A DNA stretch of 55,360 nt from Syntrophales bacterium (GTDB taxonomy: Bacteria; Desulfobacterota; Syntrophia; Syntrophales; JACQWR01): NCBI GenBank assembly GCA_035283845.1, contig DATESZ010000264.1, positions 1 through 55,360 on the forward strand. The letters are read 5' to 3'. Below the pieces are notes generated by a model. That model saw only the letters and a list, made by a program, of their open reading frames with translations. It made no database searches and had not been told where the DNA came from. The position numbers were made by a program, and so were the translations under genes. Shown here piece by piece: positions 1-30,446 of the stretch; within the stretch, counting starts at the first letter, position 1, and each line of letters begins with the position of its first letter.

Positions 1-141
1 CTATCCGCATACTTCCTCCTCTCCATTCAAAAATTATGCCACGTGCTAGGCAGAATTATCATATCTCAATATCACTAATTATGCCTATTGCGCTGTTGAA
101 CTCCACAAAAGACATGGTTCCTGCTTCATCCGCCGGCATTA
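1..141. repeat. Terminal direct repeat copy 1 (= 55220..55360); assembly overlap of a circular or circularly permuted genome
   Basis: nt 1-141 (ctatccgcatacttcc...catccgccggcatta) recur verbatim as the last 141 nt of the window. Confidence 0.95.
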
Positions 142-300
142 AAACACCACACGTCCGCAGGCTCTTTCCGAGGTTCCCCCGGTGGCTGAAATCAAGTTCT
201 GTTTCTGTAATCCGAATTTAAGGATATTCTGCGCTGCAAGATGGTCTCTGTCATGGGCTGCCCCGCACGTCTCACATGTCCACACGCGGTCAGATAGCGT
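95..300 (-). ncRNA. Candidate TnpB guide RNA (omega/reRNA) scaffold overlapping the tnpB 3' end
   Basis: Inference only. In characterised TnpB elements the RNA overlaps the 3' end of tnpB and stops at the element right end. Here the minus-strand sequence ...GTGGAGTTCAAC ends at nt 95. The 5' limit cannot be set by eye. Confidence 0.3.
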
Positions 301-1302
301 CAGCCGAGCATTCACCTTGCCACAGGTACACATACGGCTTGAAGGCTCAAAACGGCCTATCTCCAGATAGTTCTTGCCACTGTCTGCAAGTTTATACTGG
401 AGCATCCGGTAGAAATCTCCAAGCCCTAAATCAGAAATGCTCTGAGCAAGGCAGTGATTCTTCACCATGCCCTTGATGAAAAGGTCTTCACACACAACCG
501 TATCGAAGCGGTTGACTATCCCGCTTGTCGTCTTGTGTAAGAAATCCTTTCTCTGGTTTGCCACATGTTCATGATACCGCGCAAGTTTCAATACGGCTTT
601 GCGTCTATTGCCACTTCCTTTCACCTTCCGGCTTGCCCTACGCTGTAAAACCTTCAGCCTTCCGAGTGCCTGCTTCAGGTGCTTCGGATTTTCTATCTCC
701 GTTCCATCTGAAAGAACGGCAAACGTCTTGATGCCTGTGTCAATCCCGACCGCCGTTGCCTTGCGGATCGCCTTCTGCTTTGCCTTCTTGTCTTCTGCCT
801 CAACGGCAATACTCACGAAGAACTTGCCTGTTGCCGTCTTCTTAATCACTGCTGTCTTTATTGTTCCCTCGAATGTCCGGCTTATTCGTGTCGGTATCCA
901 TCCGAGCTTAGGAGCAAAGACCCTATTTTCATCAAACTTGACCTTTACATTTTGCGGAAAACCTACAGTATGCCGTTTGTCATGCTTGCGCTTGAACTTT
1001 GGGAATCCGTGCTTTTCCCTAAAGAAACGAGTGAAGGCTTTTTCCATATTCACAATAGACTGTTGGAGGCTCTGAGCAACAGACAGATTCAGCCATTCAT
1101 ATTCAGGTTTCTTCTTTATCTGCGTTAATTCTGCCATCAACGTGAAGGCACTCATGGTTTTTTTATCCTTCTGGTACGCCTCAATCCTTCGGGCAAGAGA
1201 CCAGTTATACACCCATCGGGCATTACCGAGCATCTGTTCAAGCTGCCCTGCCTGATGCTGGTTCGGATAGATTCTGTATTCGTAACCACGTATTTTTACC
1301 AT
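139..1302 (-). CDS. tnpB: TnpB RNA-guided endonuclease (IS605 OrfB family), 387 aa
   Basis: ORF track. RuvC triad motifs VGIDTG, VCEDL and DRDHLAAQNI, with a CxxC...CxxC zinc finger (CTCGK..CETCG) between the last two. Confidence 0.93.
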   Translation of the reverse strand: MVKIRGYEYRIYPNQHQAGQLEQMLGNARWVYNWSLARRIEAYQKDKKTMSAFTLMAELTQIKKKPEYEWLNLSVAQSLQQSIVNMEKAFTRFFREKHGFPKFKRKHDKRHTVGFPQNVKVKFDENRVFAPKLGWIPTRISRTFEGTIKTAVIKKTATGKFFVSIAVEAEDKKAKQKAIRKATAVGIDTGIKTFAVLSDGTEIENPKHLKQALGRLKVLQRRASRKVKGSGNRRKAVLKLARYHEHVANQRKDFLHKTTSGIVNRFDTVVCEDLFIKGMVKNHCLAQSISDLGLGDFYRMLQYKLADSGKNYLEIGRFEPSSRMCTCGKVNARLTLSDRVWTCETCGAAHDRDHLAAQNILKFGLQKQNLISATGGTSERACGRVVF

Positions 1303-11583: not shown

Positions 11584-11763
11584 AGCACAAAATAAAATAC
11601 AATCCTTAGCGTCGGATTGGCTAATCTCTATCAATCCATACGATCCATCACCCTCGTCAAGCCACCCTTCACCTGAGCAAATAAAAATCCTCTGATCGCG
11701 GGTTTTAACGGCCTCATATTCCGTTCGATGTTTACAATCGCTGCATTTTGGTGTGGTTTTCAT
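11578..11763 (-). CDS. Hypothetical Cys-containing protein, 61 aa
   Basis: Internal ATG overlapping the stop of 11760..11918 (ATGA). Confidence 0.55.
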   Translation of the reverse strand: MKTTPKCSDCKHRTEYEAVKTRDQRIFICSGEGWLDEGDGSYGLIEISQSDAKDCILFCAV

Positions 11764-12106: not shown

Positions 12107-12135
12107 ATCATACACCCGTCAAATGTGTTTGTCAA
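12107..12135 (-). promoter_or_regulatory. Early-left promoter (PL-like)
   Basis: Minus strand TTGACA (12135..12130), 17 nt, TATGAT (12112..12107). Confidence 0.6.
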
Positions 12136-19543: not shown

Positions 19544-19572
19544 TTGACAACCCGTAAAGTAAATGCTATTAC
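19544..19572 (+). promoter_or_regulatory. Sigma70-like promoter of the recombinase gene
   Basis: TTGACA (19544..19549), 17 nt, TATTAC (19567..19572). The ORF-track start at 19544 is this -35 box. Confidence 0.5.
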
Positions 19573-19591
19573 AGCCCAAAATGGAGCGCAT

Positions 19592-20188
19592 ATGACCAAG
19601 CATCAGCAATCGCTTAACCACCCCCAGAAGGGGTCTCGGATAACCGTTGACCCTATTAGAAGTCTCGAAGACATAAACGAGATCAAGCTGCTACTGAGGA
19701 ATGATCCGCTTTATCTTTGTCTTTTCACTCTAGGGATAAACACAGGATTGCGTGCTTCGGACTTACTCCATATTACGGCGGGGCAGGTCAAGGATTTATC
19801 CCCGATGGACGAGTTGTGTTTGAACAAGCGTAAGACCGGCAATGGTCGGAGGATGAATTTAAACTCGGCCTGTGTTGATGCGATACATTCTCTTTTGGCT
19901 AGCAGGGGGTATCTTGACGAAGAAGTCTTGTTTATTGGGCAGCGGGGGCCGTTGACTGTTTCGTCTGTGAATCGGTTGTGGAAAAGGTGGGCGAGGCAAT
20001 GTGGGATTCGGGGGAACTTCGGCAGTCATTCTGCCAGAAAGACTTTTGGCTATCATCAGCGCGCGACCTTTGGGGTGTGCCTGCCCGAGCTGATGCGGGT
20101 GTTTGGGCATTCAAGTGAACGGCAAACCCTTGCCTACATAGGCATCCAGGATGAGACGATAAAGAACATTTACGCAAACACACTATAA
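19592..20188 (+). CDS. Tyrosine recombinase, catalytic domain only, 198 aa
   Basis: ATG with GGAG SD. Catalytic motifs TGLRASDL (R), HSARKTF (HxxR), VFGHSS (H) and LAYIG (Y). No N-terminal core-binding domain of normal length. Confidence 0.85.
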   Translation: MTKHQQSLNHPQKGSRITVDPIRSLEDINEIKLLLRNDPLYLCLFTLGINTGLRASDLLHITAGQVKDLSPMDELCLNKRKTGNGRRMNLNSACVDAIHSLLASRGYLDEEVLFIGQRGPLTVSSVNRLWKRWARQCGIRGNFGSHSARKTFGYHQRATFGVCLPELMRVFGHSSERQTLAYIGIQDETIKNIYANTL

Positions 20189-21108: not shown

Positions 21109-22731
21109 ATGGCCGTTATAACCGAAGCACACAAGACCGACATGTTCGCTGAGTTGATAAATTCCATCGACCAGAAGTTCGGAGGCAGCAGCGAAACCTC
21201 CTCCGACTTGGGGCAGTGGGCCGTTAACAATGAGATTATGCTTGATGGCAAGAAGTTCACCTTCAAAAAGCACGAATACCTTATCGAGCCCTACAGCGAC
21301 AAACACCCCTACCAGGTAGAAATAAAAGCTACACAACTGGGTCTCACCTCAAAGGCCATGCTCAGGGTATTCCATACGGCACGGTATGGAGGCGACAGCT
21401 ACCGGGGCATTGGATACTACTTCCCGTCCAGAACCGACGTTACAGACCTCAGCAAGACCAGGATAGACCCGCTTATTGATGACAACCCCGAAACCATAGG
21501 GCAGTGGATGCGCGACACCAACGCCGCTAATGTGAAAAAGATATGGAATACGAACCTTTACCTTCGCGGCATGCGGTCTCGGGTCGGAGCAAAATCATCC
21601 CCGATGGACTTCGTGGTGTTTGATGAACTGGACGAAGCCCCCCCAAAAATGGTGGATATGATTCTCGAACGTATGGCGCATTCCGAAGAGGGGGAATTAC
21701 TCTACTTGTCCAACCCCACCCTTCCGGATTACGGTATCGATCGGCTTTTCCAGCTTTCCAACCAGATGTACTGGCTGATTAAGTGCCCAAAGTGCAATCA
21801 TTACACCGATCTGGTGGGAACCTTCCCGGAGTGCCTACTAATGGCAAGGGGCAGAGTTATAAGGGCCTGCGAGAAATGCCATGCAGAACTTGACCCTTCT
21901 AAGGGCGCATGGGTTGCCAAAAGACCCGACATAACCGATATACATGGTAGGCAATTCAGCCAACTTTACTCCCAGACTAAAATGACCAACCCGGAGAAGA
22001 TACTGCATACCTTCCAGACAACGAACAATCTGACCGATTTCTACAACCTTAAGCTCGGGATAGCCTACGTAGAGGCGCAGAACCGTCTCTCTGTTCAACA
22101 AGTGCTTGATTGTTGTGGCGACAGGGGCATTGCGTCGAGTTGCGACGAGGGCACATTCATGGGGGTGGATCAAGGCAACAACCTCCACGTGGTTATTGGC
22201 AAGCCTCATCCGAAACGTGCCGGCGAGGTAATCCATATCGGGGAATATCTTGGGAACAAGGGCAAGGAAGGCGGCTCATGGAAACAACTTGATGAATTGA
22301 TGGCTAGATTTAAAGTTATGCGTTGCGTGGTTGACGGGCTGCCAGAGACCAAACATGCCAGGGCGTTTGCGGAGAGGTTCCCTGGAAGGGTATTCTTATT
22401 GTTTGCCAACGTCCACCAGAAGGGATCGTATAGGTGGGATGAGCGGGCGCATCTGGTGAGTGCGAACATTACGGAAACACTTGATGCCAGCCATAGGTTG
22501 ATAGCGGATTGCGATATTATACTACCCAGAAAATCATCGGATGTTGTCCAGGAATTCGCGCGCCATTGCCATGCCGTAGCAAAAAAACTTGAGGAAGACG
22601 ACGAAACGGGATCAAGCAGATATGTTTACATACATCGGCTCGCCGGTCCTGACCACTACGTAATGGCCTTTGACTATATGGTCATGTGTCTTCTTGATGC
22701 TCCGGCGCTTATGTTCCCGGAGCTTTTGTAA
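21109..22731 (+). CDS. terL: Large terminase subunit (GpA-like), 540 aa
   Basis: ORF track. Walker B-like VVFDELDE, a CPKC zinc motif, and typical size and position. Confidence 0.85.
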   Translation: MAVITEAHKTDMFAELINSIDQKFGGSSETSSDLGQWAVNNEIMLDGKKFTFKKHEYLIEPYSDKHPYQVEIKATQLGLTSKAMLRVFHTARYGGDSYRGIGYYFPSRTDVTDLSKTRIDPLIDDNPETIGQWMRDTNAANVKKIWNTNLYLRGMRSRVGAKSSPMDFVVFDELDEAPPKMVDMILERMAHSEEGELLYLSNPTLPDYGIDRLFQLSNQMYWLIKCPKCNHYTDLVGTFPECLLMARGRVIRACEKCHAELDPSKGAWVAKRPDITDIHGRQFSQLYSQTKMTNPEKILHTFQTTNNLTDFYNLKLGIAYVEAQNRLSVQQVLDCCGDRGIASSCDEGTFMGVDQGNNLHVVIGKPHPKRAGEVIHIGEYLGNKGKEGGSWKQLDELMARFKVMRCVVDGLPETKHARAFAERFPGRVFLLFANVHQKGSYRWDERAHLVSANITETLDASHRLIADCDIILPRKSSDVVQEFARHCHAVAKKLEEDDETGSSRYVYIHRLAGPDHYVMAFDYMVMCLLDAPALMFPELL

Positions 22732-24763: not shown

Positions 24764-26896
24764 ATGAGAAACGACCTACTCCTGATTTTATCGCCATCAG
24801 ATGTGATGCAGGCCGCACAAGAAAAGGAGGCCGCGTCTCAAGAGGCTGAACAGCCCTCCGAACACTTTGTATCGGCCCTTTCACAACACATAATCCCCAA
24901 ATGGCAAGCGGCTCAACAGGCCAAAATAATCCCAGAAATGGAAATGTTGGCGTCTGTGCGGCAAAAACGCGGCGAGTACGATCCGCAGAAATTAGCCGAG
25001 ATACAAAACGTTGGCCAGCCCGAAATATTCATGAATGTCACCGATACGAAGGTCAGGAATGGCGTTGCCTGGATAAAGGACATCATCATCCAGCCAACTC
25101 AGCGGATAATTGCCGTTGATCCCACACCGCTGCCAGATTTACCGCAAGACATAAAAGAGCAGATCACCAGTTCCGTTGTCAGGCAGTATCTTGACATGGC
25201 TGTTTCTCAGGCGGCGCAGACAGGGCAACAAATATCTTCTGACCAGCTCCGTGCTTGGATGCAGCAGGAGTCGGACGCAGTAGGGGATCGCGTCCATAGT
25301 GAAATCGTTAAAAAAGCCAAAGCAATGGCCGAAGACATAACCGACCAGATAGACGATCACTTTAAAGAGGGGGGCTTTTACAAGGCGCTCAACCAGTGCA
25401 TCGATGATATTGTCGGGCTGAAGGCGGGGTTTATAAAGGGGCCGACCTTTCGGAAGGAAAGACTCAAGAAAACCTCGCAAGACCCTGCCACCGGCAAACT
25501 GGTACGGAACATTGAAACGAAAATCGTCCCTCAGTATGATCGCGTTTCCCCATTCGCGGTATTCCCGTCGCCACGAAGCACAACCGTTGATAATGGTTAT
25601 CTTTTTCTTGTTGGGTCAATCAGACCCCACCAGCTCCATGAGCTTATTGGTGTGCCAGGTTACGATGAGGCCGAAATAAGGGAAGTCCTGAAGGAGTTCC
25701 AAGAAAAGAAGCTTAACGACGAATGGCTCACGTTATCTCTGGAAGCCAAGGAAGGAATAGGGGAAGAGAACCCCGACCAGCCGTGGTCTGCCCCGGAAAA
25801 CATTCCTTACCTCGAACTGTGGGACGAACTTCCGGGCAAACTTCTTCTCGAATGGGGGATGACGGCGGAAGATATTCCCGATCCGGACGACGATTACGCC
25901 GTGTGCGTTTGGCAGATCGGAACCCATGTCATAAAGGCCATGCTGAATTATGACAGTCTCGGCAAGAAACCTATTTCCAAAATATCCTTTGAGAATGACA
26001 ACGATTCTTTTTGGGGCCGTGGAGTAGCCGAGATGATCGCAGATTGCCAGCAGGTTTGTAACGCCTGCGCTCGTTCGATACTGGCAAATATAGCGATGGG
26101 TGCCCTTCCGATGGTAGATTTGAACATCGACCGGCTTGAACCTGGCGCATCTCGGAAGATTTGGCCTGGGCGTGTATTCCCGACTACCGACGAACAGATG
26201 GCATCGGGCAGCAAGGCAGTAAACTTTTATCAGCCCCAGATGGTTACACAACAGTTACAGGCCGTTTACGATGCCTTCTCCCGCATAGCAGATGAGCATT
26301 CCGGCATTCCGGCGTATGCGCATGGAGGAGACGTAGGCGCCGGCGGAAACGCGAGCGGGCTTGCTCAGCTAATCGGGATGGCAACCCGTGGCATAAAAGC
26401 AGTGATTCGTAACATCGACCTTGACGGCATAGTGCCCTGCCTTGAGCGCCACTATGATTATTTGCTTGAAAACTTTGAGATTTATGGGTTGATGGGTGAT
26501 TACAAGGTATCCGCCAAGGGGACGGCGGCGCTGCTTGCTAAAGAGCAGCAGACCGCTCGCAAGAACGAGTTCCTTAATTATACCGCGAACCCTGTCGACA
26601 TCCAGATTATAGGGACTGAAAATCGCCGCAAGATTCTATTCTCGGTTGCTAAGGATTTGGGTATCGATATTGATGAAAATATCTTACCGCCGATTCCCCA
26701 GGGGGGGCCGACGCAACCACAACCTGGTACTCCTCTCCCCGGTATGGTTTCCAGCCCCCCCGCTCCCTCACCACAAACCTTGGATGCGGCAGGGAATCCG
26801 GCTCAAGGAGTTGACGACCGCCAGTTCAACGAGTCGCGGCCCCGGATGGAAGTAAGCAGCCCAGGCCAGGCGGGCGGCGCTGAGGGATACCAGTGA
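24764..26896 (+). CDS. Probable portal protein, 710 aa
   Basis: ORF track. Called from size and position between the terminase and scaffold/capsid genes. No motif-level proof. Confidence 0.7.
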   Translation: MRNDLLLILSPSDVMQAAQEKEAASQEAEQPSEHFVSALSQHIIPKWQAAQQAKIIPEMEMLASVRQKRGEYDPQKLAEIQNVGQPEIFMNVTDTKVRNGVAWIKDIIIQPTQRIIAVDPTPLPDLPQDIKEQITSSVVRQYLDMAVSQAAQTGQQISSDQLRAWMQQESDAVGDRVHSEIVKKAKAMAEDITDQIDDHFKEGGFYKALNQCIDDIVGLKAGFIKGPTFRKERLKKTSQDPATGKLVRNIETKIVPQYDRVSPFAVFPSPRSTTVDNGYLFLVGSIRPHQLHELIGVPGYDEAEIREVLKEFQEKKLNDEWLTLSLEAKEGIGEENPDQPWSAPENIPYLELWDELPGKLLLEWGMTAEDIPDPDDDYAVCVWQIGTHVIKAMLNYDSLGKKPISKISFENDNDSFWGRGVAEMIADCQQVCNACARSILANIAMGALPMVDLNIDRLEPGASRKIWPGRVFPTTDEQMASGSKAVNFYQPQMVTQQLQAVYDAFSRIADEHSGIPAYAHGGDVGAGGNASGLAQLIGMATRGIKAVIRNIDLDGIVPCLERHYDYLLENFEIYGLMGDYKVSAKGTAALLAKEQQTARKNEFLNYTANPVDIQIIGTENRRKILFSVAKDLGIDIDENILPPIPQGGPTQPQPGTPLPGMVSSPPAPSPQTLDAAGNPAQGVDDRQFNESRPRMEVSSPGQAGGAEGYQ

Positions 26897-27153
26897 TAGC
26901 GCCTTCAGAGCAAACGGCGAGGGCCATAGTGAATCTGGCCGGGAATCCTAATTGGGATACGATACTCAGATGGATAGACGAATCCGCCATACTGCAAAGC
27001 CTCAAGAATAACCACAACCGAGGCGAAGAGACCATTGTCATGCAGGGGCGCAACATGGAACTCGAAGACTTCTTGAAGATAGTGGCAAAAGCTAAAGCCG
27101 GAGACTACACGAGGAATGTGGAAGAGGCGAGAAGGATGGAGAACAAAAAATAA
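26893..27153 (+). CDS. Hypothetical protein, 86 aa
   Basis: ORF track. GTG start overlapping the portal stop. Confidence 0.55.
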   Translation: MIAPSEQTARAIVNLAGNPNWDTILRWIDESAILQSLKNNHNRGEETIVMQGRNMELEDFLKIVAKAKAGDYTRNVEEARRMENKK

Positions 27154-27169
27154 ACAGGAGGATGTTTCA

Positions 27170-27283
27170 ATGGTCAAGACGTTTAAGAAGAACGACAAGA
27201 TGGATAAAGGAATGCCGGACAAAATGATGGACAAGATGCACAAGGGCAAGAATATGCCACCTCCCAAAAAGGGGAAGAAGTAA
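27170..27283 (+). CDS. Lys-rich miniprotein, 37 aa
   Basis: Hand translation: MVKTFKKNDKMDKGMPDKMMDKMHKGKNMPPPKKGKK. AGGAGG SD. Confidence 0.4.
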   Translation: MVKTFKKNDKMDKGMPDKMMDKMHKGKNMPPPKKGKK

Positions 27284-27354
27284 CACATAAAATAAAGATT
27301 TAACCGAGTTCTTGAACCTTCCGGCCAGAAGGAGAGAGACGAAAGCAGTTTTTT

Positions 27355-27401
27355 AGGCGCACAGCAAGGTGCTTGCTCACTTTGCATGCGCCTTTTTTAT
27401 T
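27355..27401 (+). terminator. Intrinsic terminator
   Basis: AGGCGCA...(inner AGCAAG/CTTGCT)...TGCGCCT followed by TTTTTTATT. Confidence 0.65.
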
Positions 27402-27420
27402 GGCTCAGTTATCAAAGGCT

Positions 27421-27519
27421 GAAGCCCGTAAAAGTCGGATCAGCCTTTATAAGCAACGCGAAGCCCGTGAAGGTCGGATCGCAAAAATAAGCAGTTGTGA
27501 AGCCCGTAAAAGTCGGATC
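27421..27519 (+). repeat. Three phased copies of GAAGCCCGTRAARGTCGGATC (39-nt period)
   Basis: Copies at 27421, 27460 and 27499. The spacers share ATAAGCA. The cluster lies between the terminator and the scaffold-gene SD. Confidence 0.9.
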
Positions 27520-27534
27520 ACAGAAAGGAACAAA

Positions 27535-28557
27535 ATGAGCACTTACGAGGAATTGGAAAAAGCAGAGCAGGAAGCGGACGCGGCATTGGCGGCGATGAAC
27601 GCCGATGAACCCGCTATCGAAGCCAAACCGGAAGATGACAAGCCCGTAAAGCCGGATGTCGTTGATGAAGGTGTGGTGTCTGATGGCGTACTCGTCGCGG
27701 ATGATCCAGCGATTAAGGCAACCCCAGCCGAAGCGCCAGTCAAGAAAGACGATGACGGCATTGACTACAAGCAAAAGTTTCTTGTGGTTGACGGGATGCT
27801 GAAGGCCGACACCGCCCGGTTAAAAGCTGAAGCGGCGCAATGGAGGGAATACGCCACGGGGCTCCAGGAACGAATATCAGTTCTTGAAGACACCGTAAAG
27901 GCAAAATCTTCCGCCGTAGAGACACAGCCGGACGAAGAAGACTACGAGGTTGATGCTTTCGTAGCAGACAACCCAGGTGCCGCTAAGCTGCTCAAGAAAA
28001 TGGAGGCCAAGCACAAGGCCGAGCTTGCCAGTCTGCGGGACGAGATAAAGTCCGTGGATCAAAAGAGCGTTGCCACAAGCGCTGAGTTTAAGCAGACCAC
28101 CGCTATCAGCCAGTTCGATAGGGCAATGGCAGATGCCGGAGCTCTAGACTGGAGGGCGATCGACACCGACCCAGGTTTCACGGAATGGTTGAACCGCTCT
28201 CCTTACAATGTCAAGGTTCTTCAGGCAGCCGCAAGCGAGTTCGATGCGCCTACTGTTTCAGCGTTCTTCCTCGATTACAAGCGCTCATTGGAAACAAATG
28301 GTGGCGACCCGCCCACTGATAATGGGAACGGTAGCCAGAGCAAAATTGAAAAATTTACCGCGCCGCCACGTTCCGGAGGGGGTGGCCCTCCTCCGAAGAC
28401 AGCGGTGTCACCGGTTCTTACGAAAGAAAATTACGCCAAATTCTCCAAACAAGCCATGACGCCAGGTGCTTATAACCCGGCTCAGTGGGGCGGCAAAACA
28501 GTGGCACAGATGGACGCCATATTTGATGCTGCCATAGCAGGGAATGAATTAAGGTAA
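27535..28557 (+). CDS. Probable scaffolding protein, 340 aa
   Basis: Internal ATG with GAAAGGA SD. Acidic, Ala/Lys-rich and coiled-coil. Lies between the portal and capsid genes. Confidence 0.6.
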   Translation: MSTYEELEKAEQEADAALAAMNADEPAIEAKPEDDKPVKPDVVDEGVVSDGVLVADDPAIKATPAEAPVKKDDDGIDYKQKFLVVDGMLKADTARLKAEAAQWREYATGLQERISVLEDTVKAKSSAVETQPDEEDYEVDAFVADNPGAAKLLKKMEAKHKAELASLRDEIKSVDQKSVATSAEFKQTTAISQFDRAMADAGALDWRAIDTDPGFTEWLNRSPYNVKVLQAAASEFDAPTVSAFFLDYKRSLETNGGDPPTDNGNGSQSKIEKFTAPPRSGGGGPPPKTAVSPVLTKENYAKFSKQAMTPGAYNPAQWGGKTVAQMDAIFDAAIAGNELR

Positions 28558-28593
28558 TACTTCTTTACGTGAGGGCCTCAATAGGAGGTTTAT

Positions 28594-28740
28594 ATGGGTT
28601 TTTCACGAGCAGCAGGCTATCCAGACTTTTCCAGCGCGGGGACTAACAAGTTTATTCCCCAGGTATGGTCTTCGAAAATGGCCCGGAAGTATTATAACAA
28701 AACAGTTCTCACGTACATCGCCAATAACGATTACGAGGGT
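28594..28740 (+). CDS. Major capsid protein, exon 1 (49 codons)
   Basis: AGGAGG SD. MGFSRAAGYPDFSSAGTNKFIPQVWSSKMARKYYNKTVLTYIANNDYEG. Unspliced reading stops after 2 more codons. Confidence 0.7.
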
Positions 28741-29651
28741 GGAGTTTAATGATTTTGCCCTCTTTAAACGCCTTTAATTGCGAGAACACCCTGAGAGTCA
28801 AAACGACGATACCGTCCGGTAACGAGATGGCGAACCGTAAAACTGTTTTGAATTGGGCAATTCGCAGCCAAGGTGCCAAGAAATTGGCACAAGGTTCAAC
28901 GACTACTCCAAGTAACCTAACCCATATTGGTAGGGTTAACGGGGCACGAATGGGGCGGTTTTTTCGAGTTCTTGCGTGGCTTTTTGTCTGGGCCTCTTCC
29001 CTTCTTCCCACAGTGGTGGAGGCGAACATGCTCAGGAACAGTCATAATGGACAGGTTTTCGATTCGGTTGTCGGTTCTATCCCCATTAATATGGTGGACG
29101 ATTTCACCATCGAAAAGATACCTGCCAAGATAGTTTGCCATAACGAGTCTATGTTTCCTGACATAACCCTTGCTGTCTCTATCGGGATGGCTGGGCATAT
29201 AAACAGAAACATAGCCCCCGTGGGTGGTGATAAACCCAGGATGATATTTGTCTATAATCGTAAAACCGTTTTCTTGGGCAATCCCGACAATATGGTTGGC
29301 GTTTCTGTTGAGAATGATTCCAATTTCCTTGGAACTAAGCCCCGCTTGGGCAAGTATCTTGATGGTGCCCAGCGAAACAACTTCTCTTTGGTTACGTTCA
29401 ATCCCGAACTTCTTCATATAATTAAGAATGAGTCGCTTACTTACCCCATAATGATTGGCAAGTTTCAACAGCGATGGGTAAATAGCGTAGCTTGCTCTAA
29501 GTTCGTCAGCGGTAATGAAGAATTTCTTTTCAGCCATAATCGGATTGTATCACCGCATCTTTCTATTTGTCAAGAAGAAAAAACAAGAAATAGTCTGACC
29601 CTGTGTGAAAATACAGGAAAACAGGATAAAGAGCCTGTTGATAACACTTTG
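28741..29651 (+). mobile_element. Group-I-like intron (~911 nt) interrupting the capsid gene
   Basis: The 5' exon ends GAGGGU, which pairs with GCCCUC at 28757..28762 (P1 with a U.G at the splice site). The last intron nt is G. Removing the intron restores the reading frame and the ...DYEG|EIKAGGDTV... junction. Confidence 0.65.
28917..29537 (-). CDS. HNH homing endonuclease inside the intron, antisense to the capsid gene, 206 aa
   Basis: ORF track. HHINGDRTDNRIENL...PEHVRLH (HNH_3-type) plus an N-terminal HTH-like region. Confidence 0.8.
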   Translation of the reverse strand: MAEKKFFITADELRASYAIYPSLLKLANHYGVSKRLILNYMKKFGIERNQREVVSLGTIKILAQAGLSSKEIGIILNRNANHIVGIAQENGFTIIDKYHPGFITTHGGYVSVYMPSHPDRDSKGYVRKHRLVMANYLGRYLFDGEIVHHINGDRTDNRIENLSIMTVPEHVRLHHCGKKGRGPDKKPRKNSKKPPHSCPVNPTNMG

Positions 29652-30446
29652 GAAATCAAAGCCGGTGGCGATACAGTCATTGTCCGTGGCATTCCCGATA
29701 TTACCATCGGCAATTACTCGAAAGGCATGACTCTCGCCATTCAGCACCCTGAAGCACCCGCTGTAACCATGCTGATCGACAAAGGCAAGTATTACAATAT
29801 CTACCTGGATGATGTAGATGCCGTTCAGTCCGACTTGCCTCTTCTGAATAAGTTCACAGAAGCTGCGGCAAGAGACAATGCCATAGCCATCGACACCGAC
29901 GTGCTGGGCAATATCTACGCGGATGCTCATGCCGATAATATCGGTTCCACAGCGGGCGCAATCACGGGTGGATTCGACCTCGGTGCGTCCGGTGCCCCGA
30001 TCCAGATCACCAAGACCAACGTGCTTGACTACATTGTCGATTGCGGAACGGTACTGGGTGAAAACGAGGTGCAGGACGAAGATTGCTGGATGGTCATCAC
30101 CGAATGGATGGCTGGCATGATCCAGAAGAGCGATTTGAAAGATTCGGCCATGACCGGAGATGCAAAGTCGGTTCTTCGCACCAACCTCCTGGGCAAAGTA
30201 GGAAGGTTTGATCTCCTGAAGTCCAACCTCCTACCCACGGTGGCTTCTGGCACTGAATCTTCCGGCTTCCAGGCGTTCTACGTCCTGTTTGGCAACAAGG
30301 ATGCTCTCAGTTTTGCCAACCAGTTTACCAAGACGCAGAAATTGGATTCTGAGTTGACGTTTGCTCAGATTGTCCGGGGCCTCAACGTGTACGGGTACAA
30401 GGTCATCAACCCGCAGGGGCTGGGATACATGTACGTTCGTCAGTAA
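29652..30446 (+). CDS. Major capsid protein, exon 2 (264 codons)
   Basis: C-terminal part of ORF 28749..30446, starting at EIKAGGDTVIVRG. Followed by a strong hairpin. Confidence 0.7.
   Translation, partial: EIKAGGDTVIVRGIPDITIGNYSKGMTLAIQHPEAPAVTMLIDKGKYYNIYLDDVDAVQSDLPLLNKFTEAAARDNAIAIDTDVLGNIYADAHADNIGSTAGAITGGFDLGASGAPIQITKTNVLDYIVDCGTVLGENEVQDEDCWMVITEWMAGMIQKSDLKDSAMTGDAKSVLRTNLLGKVGRFDLLKSNLLPTVASGTESSGFQAFYVLFGNKDALSFANQFTKTQKLDSELTFAQIVRGLNVYGYKVINPQGLGYMYVRQ

Follow-up and report, generated by a model that had tools for sequence, protein, structure and literature searches.

Group I introns in phage capsid genes have been published, for example in mycobacteriophage LittleE (Pope et al., 2013, PMC3706429; JF937101), where splicing was confirmed by reverse-transcription PCR and N-terminal protein sequencing, and a capsid intron of the lactococcal phage Tuc2009 is cited in the same paper (PMC3706429). 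In phage T4, the genes for intron endonucleases lie on the sense strand and use intron-internal promoters of their own (PMC2988022), and in nuclear ribosomal DNA (rDNA) introns the endonuclease genes of Didymium I-DirII and L2066 I-DsqI are antisense with promoters of their own (PMC3073962, PMC9548176). For the psbA intron of cyanophage S-PM2, the title of a paper by Millard et al. (2010, as cited in PMC3428280) has an antisense RNA, CfrI, linking psbA to a homing-endonuclease gene. Here we analyze a 55,360-nt stretch of DNA from a Syntrophales bacterium (contig DATESZ010000264.1; hereafter the window), in which a 911-nt insert at 28741..29651 on the plus strand interrupts a major capsid gene. 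With a probability of about 93%, we read this insert as a group I intron of the compact phage type, self-splicing and mobile, that carries an antisense HNH endonuclease cassette in its P8 loop, a reading that rests on sequence features, covariation, colinearity, purifying selection, promoter conservation and inversion of P8. The initial annotation of the locus had proposed a group I intron; our data support this interpretation, which was incomplete rather than wrong, as the intron also bears the antisense HNH gene. Missing from that annotation were the P10 helix, the minus-strand HNH open reading frame (ORF) and the artefactual nature of a 565-aa ORF.

The window's intron resembles that of LittleE in being an intron of ~0.8–0.9 kb within a tailed phage's major capsid gene, with an endonuclease gene (gene 14 in LittleE) inside it on the bottom strand. 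[quoted passage not shown] The introns of SPO1/SP82 (I-HmuI), Bastille (I-BasI), Pf-WMP3 (I-PfoP3I; PMC3428280) and T4 nrdB (I-TevIII) are, like that of the window, compact phage ribozymes at a conserved codon of an essential gene, with an HNH gene in a peripheral loop. They differ in that their endonuclease gene is on the sense strand and their host genes serve DNA metabolism, while the gene in the window is antisense, in a late structural gene and probably leaderless. The rDNA introns of I-DirII and I-DsqI share with our locus an endonuclease gene that lies opposite the ribozyme and has its own promoter, as well as the presence of both orientations at one insertion site; here, too, we find a minus-strand ORF under selection with a conserved promoter, whose transcription is predicted from sequence. 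In contrast to our locus, those introns are eukaryotic and belong to subgroup IE, with His-Cys box enzymes, RNA polymerase II promoters, spliceosomal introns and polyadenylation. The S-PM2 case is alike, as far as the cited title goes, in that an antisense RNA ties an intron-containing phage gene to a homing-endonuclease gene; the endonuclease there, F-CphI, is reportedly encoded downstream as a free-standing gene, with an antisense RNA that is said to be non-coding. The antisense, self-promoted endonuclease cassette and the orientation polymorphism are the only parts of our locus that go beyond the ordinary.

Direct reading confirmed the layout of the capsid gene that the initial annotation had drawn, namely a 49-codon ORF with a Shine-Dalgarno sequence and a stop two codons on, a second exon that begins at 29652 in another frame, and a 313-aa ORF restored by splicing. 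The Shine-Dalgarno sequence AGGAGG (28583..28588, plus strand) lies 5 nt before the ATG at 28594. Exon 1 (28594..28740, plus strand) ends in GAGGGU, with U28740 as the 5' splice-site base, and is colinear with residues 1–49 of 313-aa homologues. Its frame is closed by an in-frame UAA (GGA GTT TAA; 28747..28749, plus strand) two codons into the intron and ahead of the internal guide sequence, and an in-frame stop 0–5 codons past exon 1 is present in 11/11 full-length related introns. Exon 2 (29652..30446, plus strand) comprises 264 codons and a stop. When 28740 is joined to 29652, the junction reads DYEG-EIKAGG, and the spliced product matches the phrog_267 major head protein (1.8e-44) and the capsid protein of PDB 8e16 (4e-17); a Pfam scan of it found no family. 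Among metagenomic homologues, dozens have a length of exactly 313 aa, with 57–81% identity and a gap-free alignment across the junction, which lies inside a nearly invariant motif (D46 E50 I51 K52). Removal of the insert therefore restores a colinear host gene, as the initial annotation had expected of the spliced product, and the homologues run uninterrupted where a natural split into two polypeptides had been its alternative. The interrupted gene, with the insertion between codons 49 and 50, encodes the major capsid protein of an SU10-like tailed phage.

To identify the insert, we ran the Rfam Intron_gpI model suggested in the initial annotation. RF00028 matches 28722..29617 on the plus strand with 53.3 bits (gathering score 50, E 9e-11), far better than expected by chance, and 253 of 253 model positions are matched, the one large insertion falling in the P8 loop. 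This is the sole Rfam match in the window, even at E<=0.1, and a search of the window for tRNA genes found none. The related loci L010 and L020–L022 also exceed the RF00028 gathering threshold. We could model a full core, consisting of P1, P3–P9, P7.1/P7.2, P9.1 and P10, which is in line with the earlier group I reading. In P1 (28735..28762, plus strand), GAGGGU at 28735..28740 pairs with GCCCUC at 28757..28762, with the wobble U28740·G28757 at the splice site. This is the P1 helix of the initial annotation, whose placement of GCCCTC 16 nt into the insert was correct; the helix covaries (one compensatory pair) and is 100% paired in six aligned introns, all of which keep the U·G. We rejected Rfam's own P1/P2 alignment, which has several non-standard pairs, whereas the GAGGGU/GCCCUC P1 covaries. 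In one related intron (L083), exon 1 ends in GAGGGC and the guide is ACCCUC, which puts C·A in place of U·G. A double change of U·G to C·A keeps the wobble geometry. The P10 guide GAUUUU in the P1 loop (28751..28756, plus strand) forms 6 bp with GAAAUC at the start of exon 2 (29652..29657); as it lies directly 5' of the P1 guide, a single 12-nt internal guide holds both exon ends.

The remaining helices, all on the plus strand, complete the core. P3 pairs CGCCUU (28769..28774) with GGGGCG (28952..28957) and is 100% paired, with 4/6 pairs changed on both sides. The P4-P5-P5a domain (28779..28866) is supported by covariation and RNAalifold and consists of P4 (28779..28784/28861..28866; 2 compensatory pairs), P5 (28789..28791/28855..28857; 1 compensatory pair) and P5a (28798..28804/28845..28851; 5/6 compensatory), while P6 (28867..28869/28893..28895) and P6a with its GAAA tetraloop (28873..28879/28884..28890) come from the covariation model and RNAalifold. 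The conserved J6/7-P7 element GUUCAACGACUA (28894..28905), placed by the Rfam consensus alignment, is invariant in the six introns. P7 itself pairs GACUA (28901..28905) with UAGUC (29591..29595) and crosses P3 as a pseudoknot; because it is invariant, it yields no covariation evidence either way. Next to it, P7.1 (28906..28909/28941..28944; 4/4 pairs compensatory) encloses P7.2 (28915..28917/28934..28936; 3 bp, 93% paired), together spanning 28906..28944. P7.1 and P7.2 between the 5' strand of P7 and the 3' strand of P3 define subgroup IA in the Michel-Westhof classification, so the intron is subgroup IA-like, an assignment made by P7.1/P7.2. The 5' arm of P8, GUUUUUUC-GAG-UUCUUG (28958..28974), pairs with the 3' arm, CAAGAA-GAAAAAAC (29571..29584), and 6/8 of the basal pairs are compensatory across introns. 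An automated repeat search of the window did not report the P8 arms, probably since single-base runs are skipped, so P8 rests on direct reading and covariation. J8/7 and the 3' strand of P7, AAGAAAUAGUC (29585..29595), align to the Rfam consensus AAGAUAUAGUC. P9 is the hairpin CCUGUGU-GAAA-AUACAGG (29600..29617; 6/7 pairs compensatory), and P9.1 (29621..29651) is the hairpin ACAGG-AUAAAGAG-CCUGU followed by a conserved GAUAACA tail and the terminal G29651, the last base that the initial annotation had assigned to the insert, which is invariant among the six introns. A pairing of the P9.1 loop with CUCUUUA just past P1 fits the window and fails in L021 and L010, and we dropped it.

To measure covariation, we gathered relatives by capsid and HNH protein searches and then by the conserved 3' intron motif, which gave 14 distinct capsid genes interrupted at the same codon. 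Alignment A2 holds six full-length introns, with the P8 loop left out, and P1, P10, P3, P4, P5, P5a, P6, P6a, P7, P7.1, P7.2, P8, P9 and P9.1 were scored on it. Under a model built from the window, 92.4% of cells are standard-paired and 40/76 pairs are changed on both sides. The model values were not attained in any of 500 shuffles, and when partners were slid by 1–3 columns only 34–47% of cells were paired. RNAalifold, which was blind to the model, recovered P1, P3, P4, P5, P6, P6a, P7.1, P7.2, P8, P9 and P9.1 (58 pairs, 34 compensatory); the P7 pseudoknot was not among the recovered helices. P10 covaries with the exon, with GAAAUC and guide GAUUUU on one side against GAGAUC and guide GAUCUG on the other; guide and exon change in step in L033 and L068. 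In L010 and L052 the helix is weak, and 72% of P10 cells are paired overall.

The 3' motif CAGGATAAAGAGCYTG-N2-3-GATAACA (29622..29646 in the window) is found in 59 viral contigs beside many different 3' exons, with AUAAAGAG as the invariant P9.1 loop across contigs. Most of the introns with this motif (loci L024–L081, viral contigs) have no ORF, and L047 bears two copies of the motif 2.4 kb apart. We dropped L092 (JACCDO012067121.1, ~11610..11649) from the tally of capsid introns since it interrupts a gene for the large subunit of RuBisCO; it has the same 3' motif and a sense-strand 255-aa HNH ORF upstream of the core, so the intron class is not confined to phage genes. The core DNA also resembles introns of Bastille-like Bacillus phages, Enterococcus phages, the terminase of Shewanella phage KASIA and Yersinia phage phiR1-37. 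The KASIA match (MZ568826.1, 51985..52125) is annotated as terminase large subunit, and the KASIA paper mentions group I introns (PMC8541194). The match in phiR1-37 (NC_016163.1, 124475..124527) is annotated as the coding sequence of an HNH endonuclease (g179), which suggests that the region may be an unannotated intron.

Within the P8 loop, the minus strand encodes a 206-aa HNH homing endonuclease (29537..28917), the only minus-strand gene that we identified in the structural gene block. Pfam HNH_3 (PF13392) matches residues 127–172 (4.8e-13, 48.9 bits vs a cut-off of 24.8), the HNH motif HHINGDRTDNRIENL..H is present, and phrog_7545 is matched at 1e-25. Helix-turn-helix repeats at the N-terminus precede the HNH_3 domain, and a PDB sequence search gave a weak helix-turn-helix match only. 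The last ~19 codons of the gene overlap P8, P3 and P7.1/7.2. Homologues occupy the same loop of related introns, and among the antisense copies the pairwise ratio of nonsynonymous to synonymous substitutions (dN/dS) is 0.12–0.19, with differences concentrated at third codon positions, indicating that the antisense frame is a real gene under purifying selection. An intron of the same class in a non-capsid gene (L053, near 955..980) has a 193-aa HNH-like ORF that is also antisense, so antisense cassettes are not limited to the capsid site.

The HNH gene is preceded by a putative sigma-70-type promoter (29544..29573, minus strand) with TTGACA at 29573..29568, an 18-nt spacer that includes TGn, and TACAAT at 29549..29544. 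It matches 11/12 positions of a consensus that may not be the host's and has the TG of an extended -10 box; six sites this good occur in the whole window vs 0.9 expected from shuffles. A like promoter is found in the same position beside the P8 arm in 12/12 related cassettes that we examined. The ATG at 29537 starts 6 nt past the -10 box, too close for a ribosome-binding site to fit, and lacks a Shine-Dalgarno sequence, so the HNH mRNA is probably leaderless. The cassettes of L001, L033 and L078 are also leaderless, whereas in the others a Shine-Dalgarno sequence (mostly GGAGG) is part of a leader of ~25 nt.

When we compared the orientation of the HNH gene among introns at the capsid site, we found that it is antisense in 12 (the window, L001, the L020 group, L033, L068, L078, L082, L083 and L086–L089) and sense in two (L010 and L052). 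The sense and antisense proteins are homologous and interleaved in a rough neighbour-joining tree. A blastn alignment of L052 with L068 runs +/+ over 12-229, then +/- from 225-863 to 856-218, and again +/+ over 874-939. By this alignment, the two forms differ by an inversion of the whole P8 hairpin, which takes in both arms as well as the promoter and gene and has its breakpoints at the stem base. Since the P8 arms are inverted repeats in the DNA, a flip leaves the stem in place, and recombination between the arms would be the simplest cause. In our literature search, whose coverage was incomplete, we found no description of a phage or bacterial intron in which an endonuclease cassette undergoes hairpin inversion or orientation flipping. 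At the capsid site the count is 12 antisense to 2 sense and in other genes 1 antisense to ~9 sense, a contrast that is suggestive but not a test, given the common ancestry of the capsid introns. It is conceivable, if rather doubtful, that the P8 hairpin acts as an invertible module that flips the promoter-endonuclease cassette without harm to the ribozyme, and that the antisense form is favoured in the highly expressed capsid gene as it would uncouple the endonuclease from late transcription. The enzyme might then be made early or from a prophage, against co-infecting or superinfecting intron-less relatives, and the convergent transcript might act as an antisense RNA on the capsid message.

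Many relatives have intron-less capsid alleles, so that interrupted and empty alleles both exist at this site. One contig without the intron, from sample IMG 3300009285 (L019), is 100% identical to the window over 26690..28700. Identity breaks off at 28701, which is 40 nt short of the splice site, and from there L019 is ~70% identical and crosses an empty site, GATCACGAATCG joined to GAGATTAAA; in the intron-less L017 type the site is GACTACGAGGGT joined to GAAATCAAG. This pattern is what would be left by homing with co-conversion of the flanking exon, or by an exchange boundary at the nuclease gene. A search with the L019 junction matched L019 only, the window's own junction had no match in viral or genome collections, and the capsid-site pattern had none in the genome collection.

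Gene callers report the locus as a 51-aa ORF and a chimeric ORF of 525–565 aa (database protein P0001 among them). The 565-aa ORF of the window (28749..30446, plus strand) is an artefact, being the antisense of the HNH gene fused to exon 2. P0001 corresponds to this artefactual ORF minus 40 aa, i.e. with a 120-nt deletion, and in the window the 120 nt absent from P0001 are bounded by two 9-nt direct repeats of CAATCCCGA (29279..29287 and 29399..29407). The deletion would be in frame and take one of the helix-turn-helix units out of the HNH protein, and it may represent a decaying endonuclease variant in the population. A search for contigs encoding P0001 found none.

The capsid gene is neighboured on the plus strand by genes for the large terminase (21109..22731), an SU10-type portal (24764..26896) and a scaffold-like protein (27373..28557), as well as SU10-type adaptor genes, and the gene order of the window is shared by the intron-less relative L002. 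Elsewhere in the window, there is a short integrase-family gene (19544..20188), and at the left end (139..1302, minus strand) a 387-aa protein resembling IS605-family TnpB/OrfB transposases (OrfB_IS605, Cas12f1-like TNB; phrog_506, 1.7e-116). Two near-consensus sigma-70 matches (11–12/12) stand back to back at 12135 (minus strand) and 12178 (plus strand), where gene blocks of opposite strand meet, and may mark an early regulatory region.

Several observations weigh against reading the insert as an active mobile intron. The RF00028 score is just 3 bits over the threshold, and Rfam's own alignment of P1/P2 is poor. The 92.4% pairing is inflated by the origin of the structure model in the window sequence; the compensatory counts and the RNAalifold result are less affected. 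The divergence of L019 is limited to the last ~150 nt, at the contig end, so an assembly chimera is possible. The host's use of the sigma-70 consensus is an assumption, and downstream of the HNH gene the minus strand has no terminator-like site nearby, the sole one being weak and ~400 nt further (28519..28502). An Rfam score this near the threshold would also fit an intron that has decayed or lost its activity, or the remnant of an insertion, with the capsid gene a pseudogene in a defective prophage, as do the TnpB and integrase-family genes, which are often found in decaying prophages, and the variant with a deletion inside the HNH gene suggested by P0001. However, all helices of the core are intact, with pairing maintained across the family by compensatory changes, the exons keep an open and conserved 313-aa frame, the HNH frame is under purifying selection, and all other structural genes examined are intact, so that we regard decay as very improbable.

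We give still less weight to the idea that the capsid protein is made as two polypeptides of 49 aa and ~264 aa, with a free-standing HNH gene between them and no RNA splicing. There are known cases of phage genes that a free-standing endonuclease gene splits, such as the Aeh1 nrdA gene split by mobE, and the HNH gene does have its own promoter. The mobE-split Aeh1 nrdA is listed among T4-type endonucleases (PMC2988022). However, at 29652 exon 2 has neither a start codon nor a ribosome-binding site, the insert contains an entire ribozyme, which covaries and has a guide that pairs to the ends of both exons, and a split here would fall within the nearly invariant motif around the junction. Structural genes of phages commonly bear inteins and insertion sequences, too (PMC3706429 cites examples), and for the insert to be one of these or a group II intron would be the most far-fetched case, one that the sequence already excludes. 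An intein would keep one frame, and here a stop follows two codons past the junction with exon 2 in another frame; no group II intron match came up even at E<=0.1, nor is a reverse transcriptase present; and the insert has no transposase, its boundaries being those set by the group I P1/P10 guide.

Taken together, these data favour a mobile group I intron with an autonomous endonuclease cassette, for which catalysis, transcription from the antisense promoter and cleavage specificity can be predicted. The late structural transcript would carry exon 1, the intron and exon 2, and ribosomes leaving exon 1 would halt at the UAA at 28747..28749, after which the ribozyme could fold. P1 would offer U28740·G28757 to attack by exogenous guanosine, P10 (28751..28756 with 29652..29657) would align exon 2, and G29651 would fill the guanosine site of P7, so that the exons are ligated with GAGGGU joined to GAAAUC and the ligated message is translated into the 313-aa capsid protein. 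The promoter and HNH gene in the P8 loop would form an autonomous cassette on the opposite strand, from which the host polymerase would make a leaderless mRNA without dependence on the late operon. The HNH enzyme would then cut or nick intron-less capsid alleles near the junction between GGN and GAR, and repair after the cut would copy the intron in (homing).

These capsid intron findings do not overturn current understanding. At the intron locus, the most diagnostic phage gene, that of the major capsid protein, is truncated or mis-called, and since the intron class is present in at least 59 viral contigs, the same annotation correction probably applies widely in viromes. The locus also offers a natural series at one capsid codon, with the same ribozyme, the cassette in both orientations, and an allele with an empty site in a genome that is otherwise identical. 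With it, one can test how endonuclease genes associate with introns, whether their orientation matters for splicing in a heavily transcribed gene, and how far exon co-conversion extends during homing.

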